Shown piece after piece: positions 1,707 through 60,920 of a stretch of DNA of 64,000 nucleotides (positions are counted from its first letter, which is position 1; each line of letters opens with the position of its first letter). The notes under the pieces are model-generated. The model saw nothing but the letters and a program-made list of their open reading frames with translations, ran no database searches and was not told where the DNA came from. The DNA lies in assembly GCA_000997385.1 (NCBI GenBank), contig LCBT01000004.1, positions 8,002-72,001 on the forward strand, in the 5' to 3' direction. The DNA is from Candidatus Daviesbacteria bacterium GW2011_GWA1_41_61. Its GTDB lineage: Bacteria; Patescibacteriota; Microgenomatia; Daviesbacterales; UBA10151. The translations under genes and the position numbers were made by a program.

Positions 1707-3950
1707 ATGCAAAAAGTTGTTACCCGAGAGATTGATCTCGCTGGACGAAAGCTTAAACTGGAAACAGGCTTGCTGGCTCAGCAGGCAGATGCTTCAGTGG
1801 TGGCTTCTTGGGGTGAAACAGTAGTCCTTTGCACTGTGGCTACTAAGCCTTTGACCCAGGATATGGGTTACTTTCCTTTGTCAGTAGAGTATGTGGAGAA
1901 ATACTATGCCGGAGGCAGAATCACCGCTCAAAAGTTTATCAAAAGAGAAACCCGTCCTCCCGAAAAGGCTATTTTAGCCGGCAGAGCCATTGACCGGGCT
2001 ATCCGCCCTCTTTTTCCAAAAGATTTTTATAATGAGGTTCAAGTAGTGGTAACAATTTTGTCCTTTGATGGGGTCAACGATCCAGCTTTGACAGGTTTTA
2101 TTGGTACCTCTGCTGCTTTGGCTATCTCTTCAGTGCCTTGGGATGGGCCAATTGGTATAACCCGGGTTGGCCAGGCGAATGGTAGTTTTATCCTCAACCC
2201 TGATTTAGAAACTGAAGACCATCTTGATCTAAATACTTTGGTAGCTTCCACTAAGGATAAGGTAGTGATGCTGGAAACCGAAGGCAAAGAAATAGATGAG
2301 ACAACTGTCTTAGCAGCTATTAAAGAAGGGCATACTGCTGCCCAGCGGGTGATTGATTTCATTGCTGATTTTTCCAAAGAAGTGGGCCGGGAAAAGCAGC
2401 CCTACACTCCGGTGTCTGAAGATGTTGAACTTTCACTTTTGGCTGATGTTAAAGGTGAGTTCAAAGAAAAGATTGAAGCAGCTTTATTTGATACCCAACA
2501 TCCATGGCATGAAGCTACGGGGGATATGATCAAAGAAGAGCTGGCTATCAAATATGCTGAAAAGTTGACTCCCCAACAAGTTGGAACGATCTTTGATAAG
2601 GTTGCCAAAGAGCTGATGCTTGATTTTGTCTTAAATAAAGGCAAAAGGGTGGACTCCCGGGCTATGGATGAAATCCGTCCGATCTCCATAATACTAGGTT
2701 TACTTCCTCGGACTCATGGTTCAGCCATCTTTCAGCGGGGAGGAACCCAGGTTTTAGGCATAGCTACTTTAGGACCACTTTCTGCTTCTCAAATCCTGGA
2801 AGGAATGACGGGGGAAAGCACTAAAAGGTATATGCATCACTATAATATGGGCATTAACCCCTTTGCCACTGGCGAGGTGAAGAGGATTGGCAGTCCGGGC
2901 AGACGGGATATCGGTCACGGAGCCTTAGCAGAAAAAGCTTTAGTTAATGTTTTGCCCCCAGAGGAAGAGTTTCCCTATGCTATCAGAGTGGTTTCAGAAG
3001 TTTTAGGGGCTAATGCCTCAACTTCGATGGCTTCAGTCTGCGCTTCAACTTTATCTTTACTTAATGCCGGAGTGCCGCTGAAAAATCCGGTGGCAGGTAT
3101 CGCCATGGGACTTTTTTCCAATGAAGAGAAATTCCAAGTAATTACTGATATGCAGGCAGTGGAAGACTTTTATGGCCAGATGGACTTTAAAGTAGCAGGA
3201 ACTTTAAAAGGTATTACCGCTATTCAAATGGATACCAAGCTTCATGGTTTAACCTTGGTCATTATTGAAGAGGCCTTAAAACAGGGTAAAAAAGCCCGGG
3301 AATTTATTATTACCAAAATTAATGAAGCGGTTCCTGAGGTTTCCCAGCTTTCCAAGTATGCTCCTAAGATTGAGGTGACTCATATTAAGCCTGAGGATAT
3401 TGGCACTTTAATTGGCAGCGGCGGCAAAACCATTAACGGGATTATTGCTAAAACGGGAGCCCAGATTGATATCGAAGATGATGGAACAGTGATGATCTCG
3501 GCAGTTGACGAGGCAGCAGTACAAAGAGCATTAGAAGCAGTAGAAGGGATGTTTAGAGAGATCCAAGTAGGTGAGGTTTATGAAGGTAAGGTGGTAAGAA
3601 TTGCTCCTTTTGGAGCTTTCGTGGAGATTCTGCCAGGCAGGGATGGTTTGGTTCATGTTTCCCAAATGGCTCCCCATCGGGTAGAAAAGCCAGAAGATAT
3701 TGTCAGTGTGGGGCAAACTGTTAAAGTCAGGGTTACTGAGGTAGATAATATGGGGAAAATTGGTCTGTCGATGCTTTTTGGAGAGGACCGGAAAGAAGAC
3801 TCAGAGTCAAGGCCTCAAAGACGGGATTTTGGAGCCCGGGAAAGGTCTTTTGGTAGAGGTTCTGATAGAGGCCGGTTTGACCGGGACCGTAGTCCTTCAC
3901 GCCGGGGTTTTGGTGAGGGATCCGGTGGCCGACGGGACCGGCGGAGATAA
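1707..3950 (+). CDS. pnp: polynucleotide phosphorylase with C-terminal RG-rich tail
   Basis: Two RNase PH domains, KH (IGSGGKTINGI) and S1 (GKVVRIAPFGAFVEI) domains; last about 55 aa are Arg/Gly/Asp-rich low complexity. Confidence 0.95.
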   Translation: MQKVVTREIDLAGRKLKLETGLLAQQADASVVASWGETVVLCTVATKPLTQDMGYFPLSVEYVEKYYAGGRITAQKFIKRETRPPEKAILAGRAIDRAIRPLFPKDFYNEVQVVVTILSFDGVNDPALTGFIGTSAALAISSVPWDGPIGITRVGQANGSFILNPDLETEDHLDLNTLVASTKDKVVMLETEGKEIDETTVLAAIKEGHTAAQRVIDFIADFSKEVGREKQPYTPVSEDVELSLLADVKGEFKEKIEAALFDTQHPWHEATGDMIKEELAIKYAEKLTPQQVGTIFDKVAKELMLDFVLNKGKRVDSRAMDEIRPISIILGLLPRTHGSAIFQRGGTQVLGIATLGPLSASQILEGMTGESTKRYMHHYNMGINPFATGEVKRIGSPGRRDIGHGALAEKALVNVLPPEEEFPYAIRVVSEVLGANASTSMASVCASTLSLLNAGVPLKNPVAGIAMGLFSNEEKFQVITDMQAVEDFYGQMDFKVAGTLKGITAIQMDTKLHGLTLVIIEEALKQGKKAREFIITKINEAVPEVSQLSKYAPKIEVTHIKPEDIGTLIGSGGKTINGIIAKTGAQIDIEDDGTVMISAVDEAAVQRALEAVEGMFREIQVGEVYEGKVVRIAPFGAFVEILPGRDGLVHVSQMAPHRVEKPEDIVSVGQTVKVRVTEVDNMGKIGLSMLFGEDRKEDSESRPQRRDFGARERSFGRGSDRGRFDRDRSPSRRGFGEGSGGRRDRRR

Positions 3951-5098: not shown

Positions 5099-6799
5099 AT
5101 GAATAAAAAATTTAGACCTCATTATGACAATAGAGCTGGAGTACTTACCCCTTTAAAGGTTATCCCTTTAGGTGGTGTGGGTGATGTGAGTAAAAATATG
5201 TATGTTTATGAGTATGGCCAGGATATTGTCATTGTTGACTGTGGGATTGGCTTTCCCGATGAAGCTATGCCTGGCATTGATTTGGTCATCCCGGACATCT
5301 CTTATTTGAAAGACAAAAAACACAAAATCCGGGGATTGGTTATTACTCATGCTCATGATGACCATATTGGCGGTATCCCCTATCTTTGGAAGGAGTTAGG
5401 TTTTCCTCCTATCTATGCTCAAAGATTGGCAGCCGCTTTTATTAAAAATAAACTGCATGAGTTTAACTTAAGCCAAAAGGGTCTTAACACCGTTAGTATT
5501 GATAGCCGTTTTAATCTGGGCCATTTTAATATCAGCTTTTATCAAGTTTCTCACTCAGTACCTGATTCAACAGGCATTGTTTTGGAAACTCCGGCTGGCA
5601 GGGTTATCCACCAGGCTGATTTTAAAGTCGATTGGACACCGATGAGTGGCCAGGTGATTGATGTGGGGAAGATTGCCCTGATGGGGGATAAAGGAGTAGC
5701 ATTGATGTTAATTGATGCTTTGAGGGTGGAAAAGCCTGGCTACACTTTATCAGAAAAAACGATTCAGCCAACTTTTGCCCGGATTGAGGCTGAAACTAAG
5801 GGTAAGGTGTTGATCACCACTGTATCTTCCAATATCGGACGGATCCAGCAGGCTATCAATGTGGCTGTAGATGCTGGAAGAAAAATTGCTTTTCTGGGTA
5901 GATCAATGGAGAGCAACTTCCAAATTGCTTGGGATTTAGGTTATCTCCAAGTTCCCTCGGGGATTGTGATTGCCCCGGAGGAGATTAAGAGGTTCCCCGA
6001 AAAGAAGTTGATGTTGATTGTGGCCGGTTCTCAAGGTCAACCCGGCTCATCTTTGTCCCGTATTGCCAATAACGATCACAAGTTTGCTTTTGTCACCCCC
6101 CGTGACAGTGTGGTTTTTTCTGCTGATCCCATTCCTTCCCGTGAAGCAGCCCAGCATGCTTTAATTGATAGGCTGACTAAATTGGGAGCCAATGTTTACT
6201 ACACCGAGATTACGGATGATCTTCATGTTTCAGGTCATGCCAGCGCTGAGGAGATAAAGATGATGATCAATCTAGCCAAACCGAAGTATCTGCTACCCAT
6301 TGGGGCTACTTTCAGACAGATGAAGGCTTTTTCTAAAATGGTCCAGCAGTTGGGGTATGAAGAAGAGAAGATTTTATTAGTCGAAGATGGCAAGGTAGTC
6401 ACCCTTAGCCAGGACAATGTTAAAGCAGATGGATTTGTGGAGGCTAAAAATGTTTATGTTGATGGACTGGGGGTGGGGGATATTGGTAGTGTGGTGTTGC
6501 GGGATAGGATGGTTATGGCCGAGGAGGGAATTGTTTTAGTCATTGTCCCGGTTGATGTCCGTACCAGCAAATTAACCGGAGAACCGGATATTGTCAGCCG
6601 GGGGTTTGTTTTTGAGAAACAATCGGAGGAGCTGTTAGATAAAGCTAAAAATATTGTTAAAGCAGCTTTAGCAGATCATCCTGATGCTGCTTTAGATTGG
6701 CGGTTTATCCGCCGCCATATTGAGGACAGTTTAGAGAAATTTTTCTATGAGGAGACCAAGAGAAGCCCGTTAATTTTGCCAGTAGTGATAGAAGTATAA
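5099..6799 (+). CDS. rnj: ribonuclease J (metallo-beta-lactamase/beta-CASP)
   Basis: HAHDDHIGG motif, about 560 aa RNase J architecture with C-terminal domain. Confidence 0.9.
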   Translation: MNKKFRPHYDNRAGVLTPLKVIPLGGVGDVSKNMYVYEYGQDIVIVDCGIGFPDEAMPGIDLVIPDISYLKDKKHKIRGLVITHAHDDHIGGIPYLWKELGFPPIYAQRLAAAFIKNKLHEFNLSQKGLNTVSIDSRFNLGHFNISFYQVSHSVPDSTGIVLETPAGRVIHQADFKVDWTPMSGQVIDVGKIALMGDKGVALMLIDALRVEKPGYTLSEKTIQPTFARIEAETKGKVLITTVSSNIGRIQQAINVAVDAGRKIAFLGRSMESNFQIAWDLGYLQVPSGIVIAPEEIKRFPEKKLMLIVAGSQGQPGSSLSRIANNDHKFAFVTPRDSVVFSADPIPSREAAQHALIDRLTKLGANVYYTEITDDLHVSGHASAEEIKMMINLAKPKYLLPIGATFRQMKAFSKMVQQLGYEEEKILLVEDGKVVTLSQDNVKADGFVEAKNVYVDGLGVGDIGSVVLRDRMVMAEEGIVLVIVPVDVRTSKLTGEPDIVSRGFVFEKQSEELLDKAKNIVKAALADHPDAALDWRFIRRHIEDSLEKFFYEETKRSPLILPVVIEV

Positions 6800-26017: not shown

Positions 26018-26171
26018 ACTGTCAGCTTTAAAATATTTACAATTAAGGACTGATTGTTTTGTGGTATAATTAATGCAGCCAAAAACTGAGGAGAGAGTTT
26101 TTGAAGGGTGCCTCTTGACAGGCTGTTTTTGTTGTGGTTAAATTATCCACAGCTTAATAACCTAAATATTG

Positions 26172-26200
26172 GCATACAGGGTTGTATGCTTTATTTTGTT
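26172..26200 (+). terminator. rho-independent terminator/attenuator hairpin in rpoB leader
   Basis: gcataca-gggt-tgtatgc followed by tttattttgtt, about 40 nt upstream of rpoB ATG and downstream of extended -10 elements tgtggtataat (26060s) and TTGACA (26117). Confidence 0.4.
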
Positions 26201-26240: not shown

Positions 26241-29200
26241 ATGCCTGATAAAAATACTAACACAGCCGGAACCCGGGTTTACTGGGGAAATAGAAAAAAT
26301 ATTGACCAAAAATTTGACCTGACATACCTGCAAAAGGAGTCTTATGAACGGTTTATTAAAGAGGGTATCGGGGAGATTTTGTCTTCTGTCAACCCCGTGG
26401 TTGATTTTACGGGTAAAAACTGGAAATTAGAATTCGGCGATTATTCCTTGGGTAAACCCCGCTACACTTTTGAACAGGCAATTTTAAAAGGCGTGTCTTA
26501 TGAAGCTCCTCTTCGGGTGGAGATTACTTTAACCCACCTCCAGACTAACCAACAATATAAGCAAGAAGTTTTTTTAGGAGACATCCCTCAAATGACTGAA
26601 AAGGGGACGTTTATTATCAATGGTATCGAGAGGGTCGTAGTCAATCAGATTGTCCGTTCTCCGGGTGTGTTTTTCTCTTCTTCCCAAGATCCCATCACCG
26701 GGAGGGTAGTTTATTCGGCTGAACTTCGTCCAGCCCATGGATCATGGTTGGAATTTTCTGTTTCCCGGACCGATGTGATTACTGTCAAAATTGACCGGCG
26801 ACGGAAATTTGCAGCCACCACTTTTTTGCGGGCTATTGGTTATGAAGACGAACAGACACTTAACGGACTTTTTACGGGAGTGGATAACCATGAAGATCAC
26901 CATTATCTTGAAGCAACTTTAGCTAAGGACACCACTAAAAATCAAGAAGAAGCGCTTCTGGAAATCTACCGTAAGATGAGACCCGGTGATCCAGTAGTTT
27001 TGGAAAACGCTAAGAATATGTTAAACAACATGTTTTTCAATGCCCGCCGTTATGATTTAACCCGCGTCGGTAGATTTAAGATCAATAAAAAATTAAAAGT
27101 TGATATTGCTAACAGCTCCGAGAATTGGATTTTGAAAAATGAAGATATCGTAGCCACTATTACCTATCTGATTGGCTTGCAAAATGGCAAAGGGAAGGTG
27201 GACGATATTGATCATTTAGCCAACAGACGTGTCAGGCGGGTGGGAGAGTTGGTAGCCCAAAACGCTTTTTGGGTGGGGATGTTGAGGCTGGAGAGAGTCA
27301 TTAAAGAAAGGATGAGCCTGCTTTCCTCCGAAGAAGAGATTAACCCCGGAGGACTGGTCAATGCCCGGCCGATTATCGCCGCGGTAAATGAGTTTTTCCG
27401 GTCTTCGCAACTTTCCCAAATTTTGGATCAAACCAACCCGCTTTCCGAAACCGACCATTTAAGAAGGATTACTGTTACCGGGCAGGGTGGTATTACCAGG
27501 GAAAGAGCCTCTTTTTCGATCCGGGATATTAATCACTCTCAATACGGCCGGATTGATCCTATTAGATCTCCGGAAGGACCCAATATTGGTTTAGTGACTT
27601 ATTTGGCTCTCTATTCGTGGATTAACGAGTATGGGTTTTTAGAGACTCCCTATTATAAAGTAGTCTTAGTTGGGGGTAAGCCCAAGATTACCGATGAGGT
27701 TGTCTATATGTCCGCTGATGATGAAGAGGATTATTACATTACTGAAGCGACAGTTGAAGTTGACCAAAAGGGTTTTATCACTCAAACCAGAGTCCCGGTG
27801 CGTTACAATGGGAGTTTCTTTGAGGTTGATTCTAAGGTAATTAACTTTATTGATGTTTCACCTCAACAGATTACCGGAATTTCGGCGTCCTTAATTCCTT
27901 TCTTAGCTCATGATGATGCCAACCGGGCTTTAATGGGCAGTACCATGCAGAATCAGGCTGTGCCGTTGCTCCTTCCTGCGGCGCCGATTGTCGGCACAGG
28001 GATGGAAAAAGTGGTGGCGGAGAATATGGGACGTGTAGTGCGGGCTCCCTTTGACGGGGTAGTGACTGCGGTGGATGCCACAGTCGTGACTGTCGAGGGC
28101 AAAGAGGGAAAGAAAAGCTGGGAAATTAAAAAATTTGTTAATACTTCCGACAATACTAGCTATAGCCAACGACCGGTAGTAGCTTTGGGGCAAAAGATTA
28201 AAGTAGGAGATCTGTTAATTGATGGCACTGCTACTGATAATGGTGAGTTAGCCTTAGGCCAAAACTTACTAATTGCCTATATGAACTATGAAGGTTTAGG
28301 TTATGAAGATGCCATTGTTATTTCTAATCGGTTGGTGCGGGAGGATGTGCTCTCTTCAGTCTATATTGAAGAGTATGTTACTGATGTTGTCGAAACTAAA
28401 CTGGGACCAGATGAGTTAACCCGGGATATCCCTAATGTAGCTGAAGAAAATCTGGCTAATTTAGACGAAGGCGGTATTGTCCGTATTGGAGCTAAAGTCG
28501 GGCCGAATGATATTTTAGTCGGTAAAGTCCAGCCTAAGGGAGAGACTGAGCTCAGCGCTGAGGAAAGATTGCTTAGAGCTATTTTTGGCGAAAAAGCCAA
28601 AGAGGTCCGTGACACTTCCCTGCGGATGCCACACGGCGAACGGGGTACAGTTATTGGCATTCAAATTCTTTCCCGTGAGGAGGGAGATGAGTTGGATGCT
28701 GGGACAATCAAGAGAATCAAGGTTAAGGTGGCTCAGTTGAGAAAGATCTCCGTGGGGGATAAATTAGCTGGACGGCATGGGAATAAAGGAGTAATTTCTA
28801 AGATTGTGTCGGAGGTGGATATGCCCCATCTGGAAGATGGAACGCCGGTAGATATTGTTATCTCCCCCGTGACCATCCTTTCCCGTATGAATTTAGGACA
28901 GTTACTTGAGGCTCATTTGGGGTTGGCCGCTGAGAAGTTAGGCATTAAGGTAGCTGCGCCGGTATTTGAAAAGATCCCCGAGAATATCATTGTCGAGCAG
29001 CTTAAGAAAGCTGGACTTCCAGAAAATGGTAAGATGAAACTGATTGATGGAAGATCTGGAGAGTACTTTGATCAAGATATTGTAGTGGGGAAAGCTTATC
29101 TTCTAAAGCTGCACCATATGGTGGAGGATAAACAGCATGCCCGTTCTACAGGACCATATTCTATGGTTACTCAGCAACCATTAGGCGGGAAAGCCCAAAT

Positions 29201-29573
29201 GGGAGGACAGAGATTGGGAGAGATGGAGGTTTGGGCCCTGGAGGCTTATGGCGCCGCCCATATTTTACAGGAGATGTTGACTATTAAATCTGATGATGTG
29301 GTGGGCCGGACTAAAGCTTATCAGGCTATCATTCAAGGTGAGGATATCCCCCAAGCTTTAGTCCCAGAATCTTTTAAAGTGTTGGTAAAGGAACTGCAGT
29401 CTTTGGGAGTTAGTGTGGAAACAATCAACCCCACCATAGCAGCTGTAGTAGCAGAGGAGATTAAACCAGAGATAGCTTCCGAGATGGGGGCAGCAACTAT
29501 AGTCCAACCAGAAGAGCTGGGAGAAGGTTCGGGGATTGAAGTTGAAGAGATAGAAAACCTTGAAGCAGAATAG
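26241..29573 (+). CDS. rpoB: DNA-directed RNA polymerase beta subunit
   Basis: 1110 aa, canonical beta motifs (NMQRQAVPL..., GDKLAGRHGNKG). Confidence 0.97.
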   Translation: MPDKNTNTAGTRVYWGNRKNIDQKFDLTYLQKESYERFIKEGIGEILSSVNPVVDFTGKNWKLEFGDYSLGKPRYTFEQAILKGVSYEAPLRVEITLTHLQTNQQYKQEVFLGDIPQMTEKGTFIINGIERVVVNQIVRSPGVFFSSSQDPITGRVVYSAELRPAHGSWLEFSVSRTDVITVKIDRRRKFAATTFLRAIGYEDEQTLNGLFTGVDNHEDHHYLEATLAKDTTKNQEEALLEIYRKMRPGDPVVLENAKNMLNNMFFNARRYDLTRVGRFKINKKLKVDIANSSENWILKNEDIVATITYLIGLQNGKGKVDDIDHLANRRVRRVGELVAQNAFWVGMLRLERVIKERMSLLSSEEEINPGGLVNARPIIAAVNEFFRSSQLSQILDQTNPLSETDHLRRITVTGQGGITRERASFSIRDINHSQYGRIDPIRSPEGPNIGLVTYLALYSWINEYGFLETPYYKVVLVGGKPKITDEVVYMSADDEEDYYITEATVEVDQKGFITQTRVPVRYNGSFFEVDSKVINFIDVSPQQITGISASLIPFLAHDDANRALMGSTMQNQAVPLLLPAAPIVGTGMEKVVAENMGRVVRAPFDGVVTAVDATVVTVEGKEGKKSWEIKKFVNTSDNTSYSQRPVVALGQKIKVGDLLIDGTATDNGELALGQNLLIAYMNYEGLGYEDAIVISNRLVREDVLSSVYIEEYVTDVVETKLGPDELTRDIPNVAEENLANLDEGGIVRIGAKVGPNDILVGKVQPKGETELSAEERLLRAIFGEKAKEVRDTSLRMPHGERGTVIGIQILSREEGDELDAGTIKRIKVKVAQLRKISVGDKLAGRHGNKGVISKIVSEVDMPHLEDGTPVDIVISPVTILSRMNLGQLLEAHLGLAAEKLGIKVAAPVFEKIPENIIVEQLKKAGLPENGKMKLIDGRSGEYFDQDIVVGKAYLLKLHHMVEDKQHARSTGPYSMVTQQPLGGKAQMGGQRLGEMEVWALEAYGAAHILQEMLTIKSDDVVGRTKAYQAIIQGEDIPQALVPESFKVLVKELQSLGVSVETINPTIAAVVAEEIKPEIASEMGAATIVQPEELGEGSGIEVEEIENLEAE

Positions 29574-29657: not shown

Positions 29658-32600
29658 ATGAATGATTTATTAGATTTTGAATCTTTAAAAGTTACTATTG
29701 CTAGTCCAGGACAGGTTAAAGCCTGGTCTTTTGGGGAGGTTACTAAGCCGGAAACCATTAACTACCGGACCTTAAAACCGGAAAAAGACGGTCTTTTTGC
29801 TGAAAATATCTTTGGCCCAACCAAAGATTATGAATGTTACTGCGGCAAATACAAACGGATTCGTTACCGTGGTGTAATTTGTGACAAATGCGGTGTTGAG
29901 GTTACCCAAAGCAAGGTCAGACGTGAAAGGTTGGGCCATATCACCTTAGCTGCTCCGGTGGCTCACAATTGGTTTGTCAAAGGGGCTCCTTCCAAACTTT
30001 CCTTAGTTTTGGACTTGTCCTTAAAGAGTCTGGAAGCGGTGATCTATTTTGCTTCTTATTTGGTGATCGAGGTTGATGATCAGGGGAGAACTCAATCTTT
30101 AAGCAAACTAGAAGCAGATTTAGAGGCTAAGAAAAAGCAGGCTTCGGATAATATCGACAAAGGCATCGCGGCTTTGCAATCTGACTTGCGTCGGCAGTTG
30201 GTCGAACTTAAAGGTAAGGGGAGCGAAAATCAGGAGATAGCAGCTGCTGATTTGGAGCTTAAAAGCAAGCAGGAAATTCAAAAGCTACGGGATAACCTGG
30301 CGGTGGAACACAGTCAGCTGGAGCAGATCTTTAAGGCGGTATCTGATCTGACAAAGAGTATTAGTTTCCTCCGGGTTCTCTCCGAAGATGAGTATTTAAA
30401 GCTGGAAGAGTATGGGGTGGCTGATTTTCTCAAGGTTGGTATGGGGGCGGAGGGTTTATTGGAAGTTTTGAAGAAAATTGATCTTAATAAGCTCTCGGCT
30501 GAACTTCGGGAAGAGGTGAGAAAGACTTCAGGACAGCGTCATATCAAAGCCACTAAAAGGTTGCGGGTTATTGAAGGGATGAGGATTGCCAGTATCTCCC
30601 CGGAATGGATGATCATGCAAATTTTGCCGGTTATTCCGCCAGATCTTAGGCCGATGGTTCAACTTCCAGGAGGCCGTTTTGCTACTTCGGACTTAAATGA
30701 CTTGTACCGGCGGGTGATTAACCGTAATAATCGCTTAAAAAGGCTTATTGATTTAGGAGCTCCGGAGATTATTTTGCGTAATGAAAAACGGATGCTTCAG
30801 GAAGCCGTGGACGCTTTGATTGATTCTAATCTCAAAACTACCCGGCGTGGAGCAGGTGGCGGTCATGTTCTGCGCTCTTTGTCCGACATGCTGCGTGGTA
30901 AGCAGGGAAGGTTCAGACAAAACCTGTTGGGTAAACGGGTAGACTATTCGGGCCGGTCAGTTATTGTGGTTGGGCCTCAGTTGAAACTTAATCAAGTGGG
31001 GTTGCCCAAAGAGATGGCTTTGGAGATGTTTAAGCCTTTTGTGTTGCGGGAAGTGATTGCCCGGGGGTTGGCGGCCAATATCAAAGGAGCTAAAAATGTT
31101 TTGGAGATACGATCTTCTGAAGTCTGGGATATTTTGGAAGAGGTTATCTTCGGTCATCCGGTGTTGATCAACCGGGCTCCGACACTGCACCGTTTGGGGA
31201 TTCAGGCTTTCTTCCCAGTGTTAATTGATGGCAGTGCTATCCAAATCCATCCTAGTATCTGTGCCGGATTTGGAGCAGACTTTGATGGGGATCAGATGGC
31301 AGTCCATGTTCCCTTAAGTAAAAAATCCCAGGAAGAGGCAGTCCGTTTAATGATGGCTAAGGAAAATATCTTAAAACCAGCTTCCGGACAGCCGGTGATC
31401 GGCCATAATCGGGAGATGGCTTTAGGGATTTACTATGCCACTTCTGTTGATGAAACCATTATGCCTATTGAAGATCGGGTTTTTATTCCCGATGAAGCGG
31501 TATTAGCTTTCCAGATCGGTAAGATTAAGCTCAGGCAGCAGATTAAAGTTCATCTTAAGGGAGAAGTAACCGAGACAGTGGTGGGAAGAATTTTATTAAA
31601 CCGTCTTTTGCCGGAAAGCATGCGTTTTATTAATAAAACTATTGGTGCCAAAGAAGCGCAATCTATTGTTATGGACGCTTTTAATAAATTAGAACGGGAG
31701 GAAGCAGCTAAATTAATTGATGATCTGAAAGATTTCGGGTTTTGGGGGGTAACTATCTCCGGAGTCTCAGTGGCAGTTTTTGACAACACCATCATTAAGG
31801 AGAAGGATAAAATGATCAAAGACGGCGATAAAGAGGTGGCTGAGATTGAATCTAACTTTAAAAAGGGACTGATTACTAATGAAGAGAGAAAAATTTTAAC
31901 TGAAGAGGTTTGGACTAGAATTGGTGATGAGATCGCCCGCAAGACCTTAGGTTCGCTTGATGCTAATAATCCAGTCAGTGTTATTATGAAATCCGGGGGA
32001 GCCAGAGCTACTACAGAACAGATCAAACAACTTTCCGGTATGCGGGGTTTTTCGGTGGATCCAACTGGAAAGATTGTGGAGTTACCTACCAAATCTAACT
32101 ACCGGCAGGGATTTGCTGTTTTTGAGTATTTCACTTCTTGCCGAGGAGCCAGAAAAGGTGTAGCTGATAAAGCCCTAAAGACTGCTGATGCCGGGTATTT
32201 AACCAGAAGGTTAGTTGATGTGGCGCATGAGGCGATTATCCGAGCTGAAGGGTGTAGTGACAAAGAAGGGGTTAGTCTGCCAGTTCCTACCTCTCTACCA
32301 GCTGTCCTCTCCCGTTTTGTCGGCCGAAAGCTGTCGGCTAAAGTAGTTGACCCCAAAAGCAAAAAAGTCTTGGCTTCAGAAGGCGAGTTTGTTGATGAAG
32401 AAATTTTAAAAAATATTGTTGAGGCAAGAATAGAAAACATCTCTATTTTTTCATCTTTGACCTGTAAGACTAAATTCGGCCTTTGTGCTAAATGTTATGG
32501 TTGGGATTTAACTACTAGGAAAGTTGTTCAGATAGGGGTGCCGGTGGGGGTGGTAGCAGCTCAAAGCATCGGTGAACCCGGGACACAGCTCACGATGAGA

Positions 32601-33338
32601 ACTTTCCATACCGGAGGAGTTGTCGGTGTTGATATTACCATGGGTTTGCCTCGGGTAGAAGAGCTTTTTGAAGCTAGAACCCCCAAGAGTGTCTCCCCAC
32701 TTTCCGAGATTTCCGGCAAAGTTTCCGTCATTGAAGGAGATATGGGTACTAAGATCCGTATTAGAACTACAATTAAACCTTATGAAGAGCGAGAGTATGC
32801 CATTTCGGCTACGGCCACTGTTTTAGTAGAGGATGGACAGTTGATAGCTGCCGGAACACAACTGGCCAGTGGCCACCTTGATATTAAAGAGGTGGTGAGG
32901 GTTAATGGCCTTAAAGCGGCTCAAAGATATATTGTTGACCAAGCTCGGGAGGTATATGCTTCTCAGGGTGTACAAATTAACGATAAACACTTTGAAGTTA
33001 TTGTCCGCAAGATGTCGGATAAGGTTAGAGTAGAGACTCAAGGGGATACTAATTTACTGCCGGGGGAGATTATTGACCGGGTAAGATTTGAAGAAGAAAA
33101 CCAGCGGGTTTTAGCAGCGGGAGGAGATCCGGCTACGGCCTCAGCTATTATTCTGGGTATAACCCGGGCCTCGCTGCTGACGGAATCGTTCCTTTCCGCA
33201 GCTTCGTTCCAAGAAACAACCACTGTTTTGGCTGATGCTGCAGCCTCAGGTAAGGTTGACCGCTTGCTGGGACTTAAGGAAAACGTTATAATTGGACGTT
33301 TGATTCCGACTGATCCTAGCAGGGTCAAAGTGAGATAA
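29658..33338 (+). CDS. rpoC: DNA-directed RNA polymerase beta' subunit
   Basis: 1226 aa; zinc finger [33 protein letters not shown] catalytic motif. Confidence 0.97.
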
Positions 33339-33411: not shown

Positions 33412-33837
33412 ATGCCAACGATAAATCAATTAGTCAGAAAAGGGCGGCGGGAAGCCCGCAAAAAGGTTAAAGCTAGTGCTCTGCGGCGCAGCTTTAATGC
33501 TTTGGACAGAAAATATATACCAACTTTTAATCCTCAAAAAAGGGGAGTGGTGACGGTGGTCAAAACTATGACCCCTAAAAAGCCTAACTCCGCTCTTCGT
33601 AAAGTAGCTAGGGTGAGGTTGTCCAATAAAACAGAGGTAACAGCTTATATTCAAGGCATTGGGCATGATCTGTCGGAGCACGGGATTGTTTTAATAAGAG
33701 GCGGTAGGGTTAAAGATTTGCCAGGGGTTAAATATCATATCGTCCGTGGGAGGCTGGATATGAGCGGGGTGCAAAAACGGATGACCAGTAGATCTAAATA
33801 TGGATCAAAGAGAATGTCAGGAGGAACAAAAGTTTAA
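33412..33837 (+). CDS. rpsL: 30S ribosomal protein S12 (with about 13-aa N-terminal-region insertion)
   Basis: [11 protein letters not shown]...[16 protein letters not shown]...[20 protein letters not shown]; 141 aa vs 124 typical. Confidence 0.95.
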
Positions 33838-33843
33838 ATAACC

Positions 33844-34326
33844 ATGCCTAGATCAGGAAAAATTACCAAGAGAGTTGTTTTGCCAGATCCAGTTTATAAC
33901 TCTCGTCTTTTAAGCAGGTTTATCAACCGGATGATGTTTTCCGGTAAAAAAACAGTGGCTCAAAACTTGGTCTATCAAGCCCTGGAAGAGATTGAAAAAA
34001 CTGCTGGCAAAAATCCCCTGACTGTCTTTGAGGCAGCGATCTCGAATGTTATGCCCAGGATGGAAGTACGGCCAAGAAGGATTGGCGGAGCTTCTTATCA
34101 AATCCCGGTTGAGGTAAGAGGAGACCGCAAGGAGGCTTTAGCGGTTCGCTGGATAATTGAGGCTGCCAGAAACCGTTCTAATAAAGAATACCACACCTTT
34201 GATAAAAAGTTGGCTGCTGAATTTTTAGATGCCTCTGAAGGCAAGGGCGCAGCTATTAAGAAGAAAGAAGATACCCTACGGGTAGCAGAAGCCAACCGGG
34301 CTTTCAGCCATTTCAAATGGCAGTAA
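33844..34326 (+). CDS. rpsG: 30S ribosomal protein S7
   Basis: Conserved S7 sequence, 160 aa. Confidence 0.95.
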   Translation: MPRSGKITKRVVLPDPVYNSRLLSRFINRMMFSGKKTVAQNLVYQALEEIEKTAGKNPLTVFEAAISNVMPRMEVRPRRIGGASYQIPVEVRGDRKEALAVRWIIEAARNRSNKEYHTFDKKLAAEFLDASEGKGAAIKKKEDTLRVAEANRAFSHFKWQ

Positions 34327-34342: not shown

Positions 34343-34371
34343 TTGACTTTCTATTCAAACTTGGGTAATAT
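34343..34371 (+). promoter_or_regulatory. sigma70-like promoter TTGACT-17-TAATAT downstream of rpsG
   Basis: ttgact ttctattcaaacttggg taatat read directly. Confidence 0.4.
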
Positions 34372-34404: not shown

Positions 34405-34431
34405 GAGCCTCCTAAAAGAGGAGGCTTTTTA
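34405..34431 (+). terminator. intrinsic terminator-like hairpin (gagcctcct-aaaag-aggaggctt + T5) between promoter and SD of the Gre-N gene
   Basis: 8-9 bp GC-rich stem with 5-nt loop followed by ttttt, then SD aaggagg and ATG 34455. Confidence 0.55.
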
Positions 34432-34454
34432 AATGTTTAAGGAGGAATAATTGA

Positions 34455-34688
34455 ATGGATAAATTAAGTTTGGAAAAGATTAATATGTGGAAGGGAAAAC
34501 TGCAAAAACTCCAAAAAGAGTACGAGGAGATTATGCAAAAAAGAGGTGAAGCCATGCAGATGGGAGATCTGAGAGAGAATGCTGCTTTCCAATCTTTATC
34601 TGAAGATGCTGATACCTGGCGGGCCAGAATGGAAGAGCTAAAAAATATTATTACCAAACTGGAACATGAAAACCCGGGAGCCAAATAA
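34455..34688 (+). CDS. Gre-factor N-terminal coiled-coil domain-only protein (77 aa)
   Basis: [30 protein letters not shown] aligns to GreA [30 protein letters not shown] incl. acidic tip D..E; no C-terminal FKBP-like domain; strong SD; TAATG overlap with fusA. Confidence 0.7.
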
Positions 34689-36829
34689 TGGCTGTAGCAA
34701 CTCAAACCAAAAGGGATTTTCCCTTAGATAGAATTAGAAATATCGGCATCATCGCCCATATTGATGCTGGAAAAACTACCACCACCGAAAGAATCCTTTT
34801 TTATACCGGTAGAACTTATAAAATCGGCGATATTGATGAGGGTACTACCACTACTGACTGGATGGAGCAGGAAAAAGAGAGGGGAATCACCATTGTTTCC
34901 GCTGCCATTACTACTTTTTGGATCCCTAAATCTGGGCCTTTTGAGGGTCAGGAAACCAGAATTAATATTATCGATACTCCGGGGCACGTTGACTTTACTG
35001 CTGAGGTAGAAAGGTCACTGCGGGTTTTAGACGGGGGAGTAATTGTGCTGGATGCAGCTTCCGGTGTTCAATCCCAAACTGAAACTGTCTGGAGACAGGC
35101 TAACAAATATAAAGTCCCTTTAGTGGCTTTTGCCAACAAGATGGATGTGGTGGGGGCAGATTTTTTAGCTACCATCCAATCAGCCAGAGATAGGTTAGGA
35201 GCCAATGCCTTGCCTTATAATCTGCCGATTGGCAGTGAAAATGATTTTAAAGGGGTGGTTGATCTTTTAACTAAAAAAGCCTATATCTGGGAGGGTGATC
35301 AAACTGGAGCCAAGTTTAATGAAGCAGAGATTCCTGCCCGGATGGTTGATCTGGTTGCTACCTGGCGGGATAAGTTGGTGGAAGAGATCTCCGGGACTGA
35401 TGATGTCTTGATGGAAAAGTATTTGAATGGGGAAGAGATCAGTGTTGAGGAGCTTAAAAAATCCTTAAGACAAGCGGTCATTGATAATAAAATTGTCCCA
35501 GTAATGGCTGGGTCATCTCTTAGGAATAAAGGTGTCCAGCCGATGCTGGATGCAGCAGTAGAGTTTTTGCCTTCCCCTCAGGATGTTTCGGAAGTGGTAG
35601 GAGAAAATCCCCGTTCCGGTGAACAAGAGATTAGAAAAGCTGACCCTAAATCCCCTTTGTCAGCCTTAGCTTTTAAGATTCAAGTTGATCCCCATGTGGG
35701 GAAGCTAACTTATCTGCGGGTTTATTCGGGGACTATTCAATCTGGTTCTTATCTTTATAACTCCTCCAAAGGCATTAAAGAAAGAGTCGGTCGCTTAATG
35801 TTGATGCATGCCAATGACCGGGAGGAGATTGAGGAAGCTTACGCCGGAGAGATTGTGGCAGCAGTGGGCTTAAAAGAGACTATTACCGGCAACACTTTAT
35901 GTGATGAAAACGCCCCGATTGTTTTAGAGTCCATTACTTTTCCTGATCCGGTGATCTCTTTAGCTATTGAACCTAAAACCAAATCTGACCAGGAAAAATT
36001 AGGCACGGCACTATCAAGGTTATCAGAAGAAGATCCTACCTTCAGAGTCAAAGTCGACCAGGAAACCGGCCAGACCATTATTGCCGGAATGGGAGAGTTA
36101 CAGCTGGAGGTGCTAGTAGATAGGATGAGGCGGGAGTTTAAAGTGGAGGCTAATGTCGGCCAACCTCAAGTAGCTTATAAAGAGACTATCACTCAAACTG
36201 CCAGCGGTGAGGGTAAATACATCCGTCAAACTGGAGGACGGGGTCAATACGGGCATTGTTTTCTAAGAATTGAACCTCTTCCCCGGGGGCAAGGCCGGGA
36301 GTTTGCCTCAGCGATTGTTGGCGGAGCCATACCTCGGGAGTTTATCCCAGCTATTGAAAAGGGGGTTTTAGAAAAAGAAGATACCGGTATTTTGGCAGGT
36401 TATCCTGTCACCGATATTAAGGTGGCAGTTTATGATGGATCTTTCCATGATGTGGATTCTTCAGAGATGGCTTTTAAGATTGCCGGTTCCCTAGGGCTTT
36501 CTGAAGCTGCCAAAAAGGCTGAAATGGTGTTACTTGAGCCTATCATGAAGGTGGAGGTCACCACTCCGGAGGAGTTTTTGGGAGACATGATTGCTGATTT
36601 ATCTTCTAAAAGGGCGCAGATTCAATCTACGGAGATGAGAGGTAATGCCAGGGTAGTACTAGCTTTAGTTCCCTTAGCTGAGATGGGTGGTTATGCTACT
36701 ACTATCAGAAGTATGTCTCAAGGAAGAGCTACTTACTATATGGAAGCAGATCACTATGAGGAAGTTCCCAAAAATATTACCCAAAAGATCGTTGAATCCT
36801 CCGGCTTCACCGGCAGGGTAGAACACTAA
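34688..36829 (+). CDS. fusA: elongation factor G
   Basis: 713 aa, G-domain motifs [21 protein letters not shown]. Confidence 0.97.
36800..36829. repeat. direct repeat copy A (3' end of fusA, tccggcttcaccggcagggtagaacactaa)
   Basis: 29/30 identical to 39097-39126. Confidence 0.85.
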
Positions 36830-36834
36830 AAAAG

Positions 36835-39042
36835 TTACTTTTTCTCTTTAAGCTTAACTCCTGCAATAATCATAGCCTCAATGAAAGATTGTCTACCTTC
36901 TGCAGTAACAACGTCTATAATCTTAGATATATTCTTTCTTTTTTCAAAATATTCGGGGTGTTCTTGCTCTAACCTAGCCTTTACCTGCAAGGCTATTGAA
37001 GATAGTCGAGATTCCCTACCCGTAAAAATTAGATGTAGGATGGACTGCGTTAGTGGCAAATCTGCTTCACGAACTTGCTGAATAGTAGTGTCTTTTAGTT
37101 TTTCCCCTGCAGCTACCATTGCGTTAATAAATATTTGTCTACCTTCAAAGGTGACTGCGTCTACTATAAAAGACCCGTTCATTCTTTTTTTAAAATATTC
37201 AGGGTACTCGCTCTCTAATCTCTCTTTTACCTCTTTAACTCTTAGTGATAACCTTGTTCCATCACCTATAAAAACCAATTTTACACTCTCCCATGTTAAA
37301 GCCATATCTGTATCCTTAAGTTCCTGGATATCTTTGTCTTGCAGCGCTATACCCGCGGCTAACATTTCTTCAATAAAAGCTTGTTTGCCTTCAAGGGTAA
37401 CGATTGAGATCACATTCGGCCCACTCCTTCTTTTAGAAAAATATTCTGGATGCTCAGTTTCCATTCTTGTTTTTACTTGTAGGGCCAGAGGAGATAACTT
37501 CTCAAACCCGCCCCTAAAGACCTCTGTCAAACCAGCATGCGATAGTGGGATTTCTCCAGCTATAACATCTATTAGTAACCCCTTCCCAAGATCTGAAATA
37601 TCTACCGAGTCGCCTTTCCTTCTTATGTTTTGCACTACATCAAGTTCAGTTAATCCTGCAATGTCCTGCTCGGGCCCAAGGTATAATAGACCACTCGGTA
37701 GTTGTCTAACACTTCCTTTCATCCACATACCCATGTTATATGACCAGCCATATTGATTGGTTTGGTAGAGGAAGTCTAGATTAAGACCAAATAATTTACC
37801 TTCAAAGCGGCGAGCTAGTCTTCCAACGTATTGGGTATAACGTAGGTCGGAATCGGTAGGAGAAGCCCAAACTAAAACTTCAGTAAATGGAGCATCAAAT
37901 CCTTCTGATGCAACATAGGGAGATATTAAAACCTGAATGGAACGAGGGTCGCTTTGTGCAAGTTTATATCTTTCAATAGTGTCGAGAGCTGGAATTTCCT
38001 CATTATGAATTTGTCTTGCAGCTTGCTGGTTGACAGCAACACCTACCTTAATACCTTTAGCATTTAGAAGTTGTGCCAATTCTTGAGCCTCCCAGACAAA
38101 GTTTACAGCCACAACAGTTTTGTATTCTTTTTCACCATCTCTGATGATATTTGCAACCTTATCTGCAATAAATGGCCTCAGTTCTGGACTTTTCTTTAAA
38201 ATTTGCTCGAGCTTTCGATAATCAATCTGTCCATTTAGTTTAGTGGGGATCTCTTCTACTAGACCTGTTGTATTAATTTGCATTCCCAAAAGAGGAGGAA
38301 GTAATCTTGACTCTTGTGCTTCGGGCAAAGGGAAATTATAAGCAACCTCAAAACCATATTGTTCTGGCCTCTTCATTTGACCACTGTGTCTGTGGGGAGT
38401 AGCAGTGAACCCTATTACATTTGGGAATTGACAAACTGCGGAAGCTCGTTGAGCGGTTCCGATATTGTGAACCTCGTCAACAATCACTAAATCAAATTCT
38501 GCTGGATCAAGCTGACCTCTTTTGTAGGCTGATTGAATAGTTTGGATTGTTGCCACTCTCACATCGACGTCTTTATCCTTAAATCTTCCTACCCGATAAA
38601 ATGGAAGATCCTCTTGTTCGATTTCAAGAACTTCCTCGACGTCCTCTGTTTCTGTGGTATCTCTTTCTAACTCCTCTGACTCAGTATAGTCAACATAGTC
38701 AACACCACCATTAGATTCTTCTTGATACCTTATTAAAGCAGCATGCGCTTGTTGCACTAAAGTCAACTTTGTTCCGGCGATAAAAAGTACTCTTGCTCCA
38801 GGGTTTCTGCTTCTCCATCTTTCAATAACTTCATGCTCAACCCTTGTTTTACCGATACCTGTTGCCATAGCAGCGATAGGAAAATGGCTGCCTACTTCTC
38901 TTCTCTCAAGATGATCTAAAACTGTCTGAGCTGCCTCATACTGTTTTTGGTCTAACAGGGTTTGTAAATCTGGGGTCAGAAGACCATCTCCACCAACCTC
39001 ACCTGTCAAGCCACGAATTTTTTGCTCACCACTTCTTTCCAT
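36835..39042 (-). CDS. SF2 DEVH-box helicase (ResIII/COG1061-like) with three C-terminal about 80-aa tandem repeats
   Basis: Motif I ATGIGKT, motif II VIVDEVHN, motif III GFTATP, motif VI QYVGRLARR; C-terminal triple repeat (L.VK.RLE.EHPEYF.KR......D.VT.EG.Q.FI.AM..AG.KL); six-frame track ORF runs to 39123 through repeat copy B, start probably ATG 39042 preceded by tgatataat. Confidence 0.75.
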   Translation of the reverse strand: MERSGEQKIRGLTGEVGGDGLLTPDLQTLLDQKQYEAAQTVLDHLERREVGSHFPIAAMATGIGKTRVEHEVIERWRSRNPGARVLFIAGTKLTLVQQAHAALIRYQEESNGGVDYVDYTESEELERDTTETEDVEEVLEIEQEDLPFYRVGRFKDKDVDVRVATIQTIQSAYKRGQLDPAEFDLVIVDEVHNIGTAQRASAVCQFPNVIGFTATPHRHSGQMKRPEQYGFEVAYNFPLPEAQESRLLPPLLGMQINTTGLVEEIPTKLNGQIDYRKLEQILKKSPELRPFIADKVANIIRDGEKEYKTVVAVNFVWEAQELAQLLNAKGIKVGVAVNQQAARQIHNEEIPALDTIERYKLAQSDPRSIQVLISPYVASEGFDAPFTEVLVWASPTDSDLRYTQYVGRLARRFEGKLFGLNLDFLYQTNQYGWSYNMGMWMKGSVRQLPSGLLYLGPEQDIAGLTELDVVQNIRRKGDSVDISDLGKGLLIDVIAGEIPLSHAGLTEVFRGGFEKLSPLALQVKTRMETEHPEYFSKRRSGPNVISIVTLEGKQAFIEEMLAAGIALQDKDIQELKDTDMALTWESVKLVFIGDGTRLSLRVKEVKERLESEYPEYFKKRMNGSFIVDAVTFEGRQIFINAMVAAGEKLKDTTIQQVREADLPLTQSILHLIFTGRESRLSSIALQVKARLEQEHPEYFEKRKNISKIIDVVTAEGRQSFIEAMIIAGVKLKEKK
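36838..37497 (-). repeat. three tandem about 240-bp coding repeats (helicase C-terminal modules)
   Basis: Protein-level repeats of 84, 82 and 54 aa with shared EHPEYF.KR / EG.Q.FI.AM motifs. Confidence 0.5.
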
Positions 39043-39096
39043 GAGGCTAATTATATCAGAAGGTATTAGAGCATACAAATTATAGGATATCTGACT

Positions 39097-39126
39097 TCCG
39101 GCTTCACCGGCAGAGTAGAACACTAA
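39097..39126. repeat. direct repeat copy B (tccggcttcaccggcagagtagaacactaa)
   Basis: Duplicates last 9 codons + stop of fusA with 1 mismatch, 2297 bp downstream of copy A. Confidence 0.85.
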
Positions 39127-39971: not shown

Positions 39972-40024
39972 TGCAAATTAAGAAACTTAATTTGCAGACC
40001 CGCTTGTGGAAAGTGGGTTTTTAA
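39972..40024 (+). terminator. tandem hairpins: 11-bp perfect stem (tgcaaattaag-aaa-cttaatttgca) then intrinsic terminator (acccgctt-gtgga-aagtgggt + T5)
   Basis: Read directly downstream of the DUF218 gene. Confidence 0.55.
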
Positions 40025-41446: not shown

Positions 41447-41472
41447 AAAAAGGGCCGCAAAGGCCCTTTTTT
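41447..41472 (+). terminator. rho-independent terminator after tuf (aaaagggcc-gcaaa-ggccctttttt)
   Basis: GC stem 5 bp + loop + T6, A-tract upstream (bidirectional). Confidence 0.8.
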
Positions 41473-59582: not shown

Positions 59583-60920
59583 CTAAGTTAATTTGGGATC
59601 GTTAATAATCCCCATAAATAAAATGGTTTCTAAGCGGTTATCCCTGACGGCAAAGAAAAAAGGTTTATTAATTTGTATAGAAAATGGTTTGGCTGCTTTA
59701 TCAGGGGTTTGCATACTACTAACACCGGAAGCATTTATCCCTTCTTCACTGACCTCAATATAAGTTTTCTGTTTGACTGTACTAAGATATATATCTTTAG
59801 CTAGGTTATCAAAATTAGCCTTGGCCCCAAAAGCTATCCCCATCCCTAAGTTAATCAGAGGATTCTTTAACTCTTTCTCATATTCCATTTTAAATTTAGG
59901 TAAAATAATTGTCCCTTCTGTTTCCCTAAATTCTTCCATCCACCCATTCCAACTTTGAGCACTTAAAGTGGCAGTAAACTGTTTTAACCCATATTTGGGT
60001 AAAAAAAGATACATACTAAACCTACCCTCTTGCCCATAAGGGAGATCTATGGCCTGAAAATCATCATTTTCTAAATATTTAAAGGTCCCTTTTTGCTCCA
60101 TCATCGGATGTTGCTTTTTTAATTTATTGGCTGCAGTGAAGTCTTGATCTTTGGTTAGTTTTTTATCAAACTCCTTTGTCCAGATTCCTTTAAAATAAAC
60201 AGCATTAATAAGATATAAAACAGTATTTTTAGGAAATGGAGAGCTGACAATTTGGGCAATTTTGTTTTTAGTGTTTTCTTTTACCCAATTATTAATAGTG
60301 GCAGCAGCATTTGGTTGAGTAAAATCTAAATTTTTGACTTGAGCCTGGTAGTATTTTTGGTTGGTATCTATAAAATCTTGATTAAACTTTATATCCTTCT
60401 TTCCCCAAATAGAGTTAGCAACAGAGATTTCTACTTTAGGGTCAGTACTTTTTAAAATATTTAACAGATCCTGGTTGTTTTTGTTCAAATCTTCTTTAAA
60501 AATATCTTGAATATTTAAAGTTTGGGTTAGGGCATCTTTGGTTTGGTCTAAAGCTCCTTGGTAAACCATGGAAAGGGCTAAAGAGATGCCCGAGGGGGAA
60601 ATAAAGATATTTTTTAAAGAGTCAACTTTGACAAGTTCTTGGAAAAGTTTAAAGCTAAAGTTATTTTGAGCCGAGACAAATTTTTGGTCTAACCCAGGAG
60701 GCAATAATGGGGGAGTAGGATCCTTCTTTATCTGGGTTACTCCGGGTTGGGATTTCGGAGTGATTGGCTTATGTTTAGGAATAGAGGAGAGTTTGTTGAC
60801 TAAAGAAGGATGGTTGGCTTTAAGATAAAAAGCCCCTCCTACTATGGAGGCAGAGGTAATAAATAGACCAACGATAAAAAGAATCAAGGCAAAACCCGTC
60901 TGGTATTTGGGCAGATCCAC
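59583..60920 (-). CDS. membrane-anchored serpin (serine protease inhibitor)
   Basis: Serpin hinge/RCL SEEGINASGVSSMQTPDK and C-terminal FFFAVRDNRLETILFMGIINDP signature; N-terminal TM anchor + Pro-rich linker. Confidence 0.8.
   Translation of the reverse strand: MDLPKYQTGFALILFIVGLFITSASIVGGAFYLKANHPSLVNKLSSIPKHKPITPKSQPGVTQIKKDPTPPLLPPGLDQKFVSAQNNFSFKLFQELVKVDSLKNIFISPSGISLALSMVYQGALDQTKDALTQTLNIQDIFKEDLNKNNQDLLNILKSTDPKVEISVANSIWGKKDIKFNQDFIDTNQKYYQAQVKNLDFTQPNAAATINNWVKENTKNKIAQIVSSPFPKNTVLYLINAVYFKGIWTKEFDKKLTKDQDFTAANKLKKQHPMMEQKGTFKYLENDDFQAIDLPYGQEGRFSMYLFLPKYGLKQFTATLSAQSWNGWMEEFRETEGTIILPKFKMEYEKELKNPLINLGMGIAFGAKANFDNLAKDIYLSTVKQKTYIEVSEEGINASGVSSMQTPDKAAKPFSIQINKPFFFAVRDNRLETILFMGIINDPKLT

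Follow-up and report, generated by a model that had tools for sequence, protein, structure and literature searches.

A gene for a protein of only 77 residues lies between rpsG and fusA in the genome of Candidatus Daviesbacteria bacterium GW2011_GWA1_41_61 (CPR/Patescibacteria, Microgenomates), and its translation resembles the N-terminal coiled coil of GreA and GreB. The question raised by this locus is whether such a protein, which would lack the globular domain by which Gre factors hold RNA polymerase (RNAP), is a genuine product under selection and, if so, what it might do at RNAP and why it stands directly ahead of the gene for EF-G. We analysed a 64,000-nt stretch of this genome (the window), in which the following features are relevant to the question.

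26241-29573: rpoB, upstream of the small gene
29658-33338: rpoC, upstream of the small gene
33412-34326, + strand: rpsL (33412-33837) and rpsG (33844-34326), the upstream neighbours of the small gene here
34343-34371, + strand: candidate sigma-70-type promoter, TTGACT-17 nt-TAATAT, located by consensus scan
34406-34430, + strand: leader hairpin from folding, AGCCUCCU-AAAAG-AGGAGGCU and then U5, with an 8-bp GC-rich stem
34433-34450, + strand: mini-ORF of five codons (MFKEE, then a stop), which starts 8 nt after the AGGAGG of the hairpin and contains the real Shine-Dalgarno (SD) sequence
34455-34688, + strand: small-protein gene ('GreN' type 1), ATG to TAA, encoding a stand-alone Gre N-terminal domain of 77 aa
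34688-36829, + strand: fusA (EF-G, 713 aa), the downstream partner of the small gene

The original prediction had placed a 77-aa ORF at 34455-34688 and had claimed that its end overlaps the start of fusA; the frame was found exactly there, on the + strand from ATG to TAA, and the overlap is borne out by the TAATG at 34685-34689, in which the stop of the small gene and the fusA start share a nucleotide. An SD sequence, AAGGAGG, lies at 34439-34445, 9 nt 5' of the ATG. The identical 77-aa protein, KKS14731.1, encoded on a contig of 630,552 bp, is on record for this organism as a hypothetical protein at NCBI, UniRef carries the automatic label 'GreA/GreB N-terminal domain-containing protein', and one homologue is labeled 'GreA/GreB family factor' at JGI. 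Since these automatic labels already name the domain, the domain call is not new.

Homology to the Gre N-terminal domain was assessed with profile searches. The Pfam GreA_GreB_N profile, which the original prediction had named as the check on its claim of full-length homology, aligns residues 5-68 of the protein with profile positions 4-68 of 71 (E 3.7e-7) and, at 30.7 bits, exceeds the gathering cut-off of 24.5 bits, while the remaining Pfam matches are sub-threshold coiled-coil noise. The NCBIfam GreA models match the protein with their N-terminal halves alone, at 18-32 bits versus cut-offs of 139-714 (e.g., TIGR01462, 31.6 bits with a cut-off of 139). In a profile-profile comparison (hhalign) of the 54-member family described below with full-length CPR GreA, columns 2-74 align with columns 3-75 of 155 with one single-residue indel (probability 98.7%, E 1.7e-16). 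At the level of sequence profiles, the 77-aa protein is thus confirmed as an end-to-end homologue of the GreA N-terminal domain. The protein, which contains no cysteines, gives no Pfam or NCBIfam match to a DksA/TraR zinc finger (zf-dskA_traR), not even with E allowed to rise to 10.

The protein is an antiparallel helical hairpin matching GreA residues about 3-76, modeled by AlphaFold2 with the family alignment at a pLDDT of 87.4 and composed of the following predicted elements.

Residues 3-34: helix
Residues 35-42: tip loop (QMGDLREN)
Residues 43-72: helix

In Foldseek, E. coli GreA (1grj) superposes on this model with an rmsd of 1.3 Å over 60 residues, and Gfh1 and a GreA/Gfh1 chimera are also among the top matches. 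The E-values are not significant, and equal scores go to unrelated hairpins, those of the LSD1 tower and SerRS; the fold is therefore consistent with Gre without being diagnostic, and the sequence profiles carry the case.

Conservation in the family was compared, column by column, against E. coli GreA and the N-domains of 226 canonical GreAs. Residues M27, R30, G31, A33, G37, D38, E41, and N42 are invariant in the family, and K8, W12, K15, L16, Y23, E32, M36, L39, R40, A43, A44, F45, Q46, E50, D51, A52, R56, E61, and I65 are at least 90% conserved. The tip G37-D38-L39-x-E41-N42 is common to canonical GreA (E. coli G40-D41-L42-x-E44-N45), as are L16, A33, E50, and E61. The acidic tip that had been predicted as GDLRENAAF is seen at residues 37-45, and its D38 and E41, invariant in 54 family members, align with D41 and E44, the residues through which E. 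coli GreA acts on the catalytic Mg2+ (PMC7527559); the antipause activity, too, resides in the GreA N-domain (PMC7527559). Conservation is densest around the tip, at residues 27-52, as expected of a protein that reaches the active site and not of a coiled coil with a structural role only. Relative to canonical GreA, about 17 positions show conservation peculiar to the family, including replacements of near-invariant canonical residues (canonical to type 1): L14 to W12, E17 to K15, R26 to Y23, S/K43 to R40, E47 to A44, Y48 to F45, Q55 to A52, and E59 to R56. In E. coli GreA, R26 and E59 form a described inter-helix salt bridge (PMC7527559), so that their joint replacement by Y23 and R56 is a coordinated change at contacting positions.

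The reading that we favor, with a confidence only a little above even, is that the protein is a needle-only Gre derivative of the RNAP secondary channel that is co-expressed with EF-G and whose level is set at a promoter-proximal terminator. The helical hairpin would enter the secondary channel and, like GreA, bring D38 and E41 to the active site, and would there stimulate cleavage of backtracked RNA or, at minimum, occupy the channel. Without a rim-helix-binding C-domain, its binding to RNAP is expected to be weak and transient. This weakness might be offset if the protein were abundant, by being co-transcribed and often translationally coupled with EF-G, which is among the most highly expressed proteins. 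A second offset may come from the family-specific W12, K15, and Y23/R56 (in place of the canonical L, E, and R26-E59 salt bridge) together with R30-G31-E32, the family-specific surface residues being predicted to sit at the open end of the hairpin.

Several points count against this reading. We infer RNAP binding from the sequence, and the bacterial secondary-channel factors described so far all bind RNAP through a globular C-domain (2015 review, PMC4598747), with GreA, GreB, DksA, TraR, Gfh1, and Rnk described as needing a globular domain to hold RNAP; specific RNAP binding is reported to need both GreA domains (PMC7527559). The helical hairpin is, as the Foldseek comparison illustrates, a generic fold. 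In type 1, moreover, several residues that hardly vary among canonical GreAs are substituted (E47 to A, Y48 to F, Q55 to A, E17 to K, S43 to R), so the activity may differ from cleavage stimulation. That the 77-aa protein stimulates RNA cleavage is accordingly proposed tentatively, at somewhat less than an even chance, and inhibition is considered beside it because type 1 has lost E47, the Y48 hydroxyl, and Q55.

An inhibitor or competitor would plug the secondary channel and modulate catalysis or the access of a canonical GreA encoded elsewhere in the genome, much as Gfh1 or Rv3788 does; we regard this as unlikely, although it is the most probable of the alternatives. The replaced residues E47, Y48, and Q55 flank the tip, and Gfh1 and Rv3788 inhibit although their acidic tip residues are kept (PMC4598747). 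Other CPR lineages have canonical GreA, and Daviesbacteria may therefore have it too. However, the known inhibitors prevail over Gre by high-affinity binding of the C-domain (PMC4598747), which the 77-aa protein does not possess, a catalytic role would equally predict that D38, E41, and N42 do not vary, and the ~84 kb of this genome that we inspected contains no canonical GreA.

We followed the genomic context in 17 related loci of genomic and metagenomic origin (L001-L008 and L010-L018; 18 loci with the window); those with a named source come from Daviesbacteria or unclassified Patescibacteria. In each of the 16 loci that have downstream sequence, fusA comes immediately after the small gene, with a spacing from overlap to 110 nt. 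A position between rpsG and fusA, as originally predicted, is correct for the window, and of the two flanking genes it is the link to fusA that is conserved: about 1-3 kb is inserted between rpsG and the small gene in L003, L004, L006, L012, L013, L014, and L017, no rpsG is found within 6 kb in L007, and adjacency to rpoC is likewise not conserved. The unit that travels is therefore the small gene plus fusA. A programmed frameshift that would fuse the small protein to EF-G was rejected because the stop-to-start spacing varies over this same range.

The strict linkage to fusA could instead indicate a role in translation, with the protein, for instance, partnering EF-G or the ribosome, or coupling transcription to translation, and with the tip kept for another ligand. 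The adjacency in 16 of 16 loci, often with stop/start overlap and with rpsG and rpoC adjacency not kept, is what such a role would predict; yet the best-conserved part of the protein is the Gre catalytic loop G-D-L-x-E-N, common to canonical GreA, and no EF-G partner is known to have such a fold. Transcription-factor genes, moreover, often sit in ribosomal or translation operons, as nusG does with rplK-rpoBC and nusA with infB, the latter two being adjacent in this genome as well. On balance, we consider a translation-linked role improbable.

Other observations at these loci concern the neighborhood of the pair. The metagenome-assembled genomes with L007 and L008 are titled 'uncultured Gammaproteobacteria bacterium', and they carry the small gene together with an EF-G that is 78-88% identical to that of the window; these labels are presumably wrong. 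In L015 (a 567-kb JGI contig), fusA is broken at about 6004-6007 by a frameshift with an in-frame stop (VVV, then the stop), probably an assembly error and possibly a pseudogene. The fusA-tuf junction is an insertion hotspot: tuf directly follows fusA in L005, L013, and L017, different inserts are found in other relatives, and in the window fusA and tuf are separated by an inserted DUF218 gene and an inserted helicase gene (36835-39123, - strand; 762 aa, ResIII/DEAD-type, ending in three repeated C-terminal modules). Elsewhere in the window, 59583-60920 (- strand) encodes a serpin of full length (368 bits with Pfam Serpin) whose N-terminus is extended by ~80 aa, in a very small CPR genome; its gene adjoins one for a PEBP-family protein.

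In three of the loci, a second gene for an N-terminal domain only stands in tandem between the first copy and fusA. The coordinates of this type 2 paralogue are as follows.

L002, 6167-6412: type 2 paralogue
L010, about 2115-2290: type 2 paralogue
L014, about 3014-3232: type 2 paralogue

The type 2 proteins pass Pfam GreA_GreB_N at 29-43 bits, have the tip GDW[HQ]ENAE[FY]EDAE and keep the canonical E47/Y48-like residues that are lost from type 1. Types 1 and 2 may be an analogue of the GreA/GreB pair.

The claim that the globular domain at the C-terminus is missing holds in every search that we made. PF01272 has no match in the 77-aa protein, which ends at residue 77; with E. coli GreA and GreB as phmmer queries over all ORFs of the window, the 77-aa ORF is the sole match; no GreA C-domain is present in the window in any frame; and Pfam recognizes no GreA among the candidate window ORFs of 130-240 aa. 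Neither GreA nor its C-domain occurs in the 10 kb past either end of the window, which brings the genome inspected to a total of ~84 kb. A tblastn search with seven CPR GreA C-domains against the flanks of the 17 related loci (4-6 kb either side) found none, the one match, in L009, being to an ordinary Chloroflexota GreA in a locus with no family member. The original prediction had named a frameshift fusing the protein to a C-terminal domain elsewhere as a finding that would refute it, and no frameshifted remnant of that kind is seen in the ORF, the window, or the flanks.

A split GreA, in which the C-terminal domain is encoded by a separate gene elsewhere and the halves reassemble non-covalently, is conceivable to the extent that the N- and C-terminal domains of E. 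coli GreA can be expressed as separate stable fragments (PMC7527559). The searches above find no C-domain gene for it to pair with in the window, the 10 kb beyond, or the flanks of the 17 loci. The halves of split genes are usually adjacent. The open-end residues that would face a C-domain have diverged (W12, I65), and the tandem duplication yielded a second copy of the N-terminal domain rather than a C-domain; we hold the split arrangement to be highly improbable.

Canonical two-domain GreA is common in other CPR (Parcubacteria, Saccharibacteria, 'Pacebacteria', Harrisonbacteria). Database searches with CPR GreA returned none named as Daviesbacteria among the matches listed, all being of the Parcubacteria/Saccharibacteria type, which is no proof of absence. 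In the only two such CPR loci inspected (one Parcubacteria-group, one labeled Pacebacteria), canonical greA lies directly 5' of a class II aminoacyl-tRNA synthetase (aaRS) gene (tRNA_anti-codon + tRNA-synt_2; L019 3090-4884, L020 6001-8028), and in L019 it comes right after secY-adk-map. This context might serve to look for a loss of greA in Daviesbacteria; the window is without lysS or serS, so the comparison has no counterpart there.

The family itself is narrow. A word-indexed search gave 54 homologues, every one 62-88 aa long, confined almost entirely to Daviesbacteria-like genomes, and an exhaustive profile search gave 62 matches among 1.84 billion representatives. The roughly two dozen cluster representatives with E < 1e-5 in the latter are nearly all 48-102 aa, the longer exceptions being P0057 (126 aa, extended at the N-terminus) and P0076 (130 aa, with GreA C-domain sequence). 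P0079-P0081 (105-152 aa, E about 2e-5), which are among the weakest matches, carry GreA C-domain sequence, and intact full-length GreAs (146-160 aa) start only at E about 2e-5, with no close full-length intermediate. The needle-only family is therefore a discrete clade and not a recent truncation. No family members were found on viral contigs. Some database proteins (P0063, P0064, P0072) are divergent short members without the D-x-x-E tip, e.g., TNLGDDSAL and NGEDEDSAL, and this suggests that function has drifted further in some lineages.

The small gene is under strong purifying selection: codon analysis gives a dN/dS of about 0.04-0.15 (closest pairs L012/L013 0.04, L003/L010 0.14, L001/L002 0.15), with synonymous sites near saturation (pS 0.5-0.99, pN 0.03-0.38). 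A decaying greA fragment, a frameshift product, or a mis-called ORF with chance coiled-coil similarity, which might be suspected because the ORF is short, is hypothetical at NCBI, and belongs to a class of folds that draws spurious matches, is ruled out for practical purposes by the length and frame kept in >50 homologues, the dN/dS values, the strong SD sequence and the conserved predicted promoter of the gene itself, and the profile-profile E-value of 1.7e-16.

The preferred reading, a needle-only Gre derivative made together with EF-G, also depends on the leader of the small gene. The original prediction had placed the gene inside the rpoBC-str superoperon; its position there is correct, but a putative promoter and a terminator-like leader of its own make the small gene more than a simple internal cistron. 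A promoter-like element of the form TTGAC[TA]-17/18-TAnnAT lies upstream of the small gene in 18 of 18 loci, and in every one of them a hairpin with a T-run is found (stems of 6-11 bp, dG -7.3 to -13.5 kcal/mol), which begins 9-16 nt past the -10 element in 17 loci and 35 nt past it in the window. The window hairpin folds at -13 kcal/mol, and the entire leader has a z of -3.3 versus shuffles. The 18 loci have 18 different hairpin sequences, which argues that structure is maintained rather than sequence. There are 11 strict promoter matches in the window, and only that of the small gene has such a hairpin after it, the background of such hairpins being 2.3% per 41-nt interval.

The window hairpin has the same architecture as two ordinary terminators that follow genes (39998-40018 and 41447-41471), but whereas those come before the next promoter (of tuf and rpsJ), the small-gene hairpin comes after its promoter. 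The distance from the end of the stem to the ATG is 10-42 nt in 16 of the 18 loci and about 107 nt in L001 and L003; the short distance leaves no space for a further promoter ahead of the small gene. Together with the overlap or abutment with fusA, it implies that all transcripts of the small gene and fusA, including read-through from rpoBC-rpsLG, cross the hairpin. Since EF-G is essential and abundant, the hairpin must be leaky or regulated, hence an attenuator, and from its sequence, with the U-run, we infer a leaky terminator. Crossed in this way, the hairpin would set or regulate the level of the small protein and EF-G, and a possible autoregulatory loop, by analogy with the action of E. 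coli GreA on the terminator in its own leader (GraL), can be envisaged. Both the termination in the leader and the autoregulation are deduced from the nucleotide sequence, which counts against the preferred reading.

Alternative roles for the hairpin are a 5'-terminal stabilizing stem-loop or purely the sequestration of the SD sequence. The arms are polar, the 5' arm being C/U-rich and anti-SD-like (often CCUCC) and the 3' arm G/A-rich and SD-like (often GGAGG). In six of the related loci, only the 3' arm resembles an SD sequence, and it is 10-13 nt away from the ATG, so that the hairpin there would be expected to sequester the SD sequence as well. No Rfam family matches the leader at threshold; the sub-threshold match to Phe_leader (29 bits vs 55) is regarded as generic terminator similarity.

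Two further observations on leaders were made. The five-codon mini-ORF between hairpin and ATG in the window probably arose when the SD/start region was locally duplicated, and in L001 (about 5895-5921; MNEVTKQK, then a stop) and L003 (about 5908-5949; MDKKLQAEKLSHT, then a stop) remnant ORFs repeat the N-terminus of the protein, with an insert of about 100 nt after each; these mini-ORFs suggest repeated local duplications or insertions. At 26115-26197 of the window, 5' of rpoB, a promoter-like TTGACA-18-TAAATT precedes a weaker hairpin (GCATACA-ggg-TTGTATGC) and a T-rich run, and this site may be a second promoter-proximal attenuator; in E. coli, such an attenuator is known between rplL and rpoB.

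A broader scenario can be drawn from these elements, and we judge it quite unlikely as a whole. In it, Daviesbacteria would have replaced canonical GreA by needle-only Gre factors of 75-80 aa, in some genomes as two paralogues analogous to GreA/GreB, that dispense with rim-helix docking and whose synthesis with EF-G is set by a Gre-sensitive promoter-proximal terminator, coupling transcript rescue to translation elongation. Literature searches on GreA in Patescibacteria/Microgenomates, on PF03449, and on truncated or N-terminal-domain-only Gre found no relevant description, and a family of N-terminal domains only, with two paralogue types, obligatory fusA linkage, and a promoter-proximal attenuator, was not found in the searchable literature. 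If the needle functions alone, it would define a minimal Gre factor and a tool for probing the active site; otherwise, the needle would have been put to new use as a regulator or as a plug of the channel. That the small gene is obligatorily paired with fusA, beneath a conserved, putative promoter-proximal terminator, makes a compact and testable case of co-regulation of a transcription-quality-control factor and a translation-elongation factor, in ultra-small CPR genomes for which genetics is not yet possible. The importance of the 77-aa protein would grow if it were the sole functional Gre factor of these organisms.

Among known systems, the protein is most like the N-domain of GreA/GreB (PF03449 + PF01272; 1grj), with which it shares an antiparallel coiled coil of the same length and the identical tip G-D-L-x-E-N. 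However, it wholly lacks the globular C-terminal domain by which the beta' rim helices are bound, the canonical near-invariant E17, R26, E47, Y48, Q55, and E59 are replaced, and the small gene is fixed 5' of fusA, whereas canonical greA was seen 5' of a class II aaRS gene (two CPR loci). Because the two-domain architecture is not present, the protein should not be filed as GreA. The engineered N-terminal domain of E. coli GreA (residues 1-75) is nearly the same polypeptide segment, and, as far as the account of Koulich et al. 1998 cited in PMC7527559 goes, it bound RNAP poorly, the N-terminal domain being reported to hold the cleavage/antipause determinant. That construct is a laboratory truncation, whereas the 77-aa protein is natural, selected, and independently evolving. 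TraR, a DksA homologue of 73 aa from the F plasmid, is a precedent for a drastically shortened (~75 aa) yet functional secondary-channel factor; it keeps the globular part, whereas the 77-aa protein shows the reverse, with the coiled coil kept and the globular domain lost. Gfh1, Rv3788, and Rnk are Gre paralogues in the secondary channel with altered function and no cleavage activity, and the first two keep their acidic tips; all three retain the C-terminal domain and bind by it, its orientation controlling binding in the Gfh1/Rv3788 type, in contrast to the single-domain protein described here.

For the leader, the closest parallel is that of E. coli greA, in which two-thirds of the transcripts end at an intrinsic terminator, giving GraL, and through which GreA inhibits its own expression in cis (PMC2836576, PMC6829880). 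Both arrangements have a strong promoter, which in Daviesbacteria is a predicted one, and then an intrinsic terminator, likewise predicted there, within tens of nucleotides, 5' of a Gre-family gene. The Daviesbacteria leader differs in that it has no sequence similarity to GraL and no Rfam match, in that its hairpin begins at about +2 to +10 of the transcript, with a 3' arm that often doubles as the SD sequence, and in that the regulated unit would include fusA.
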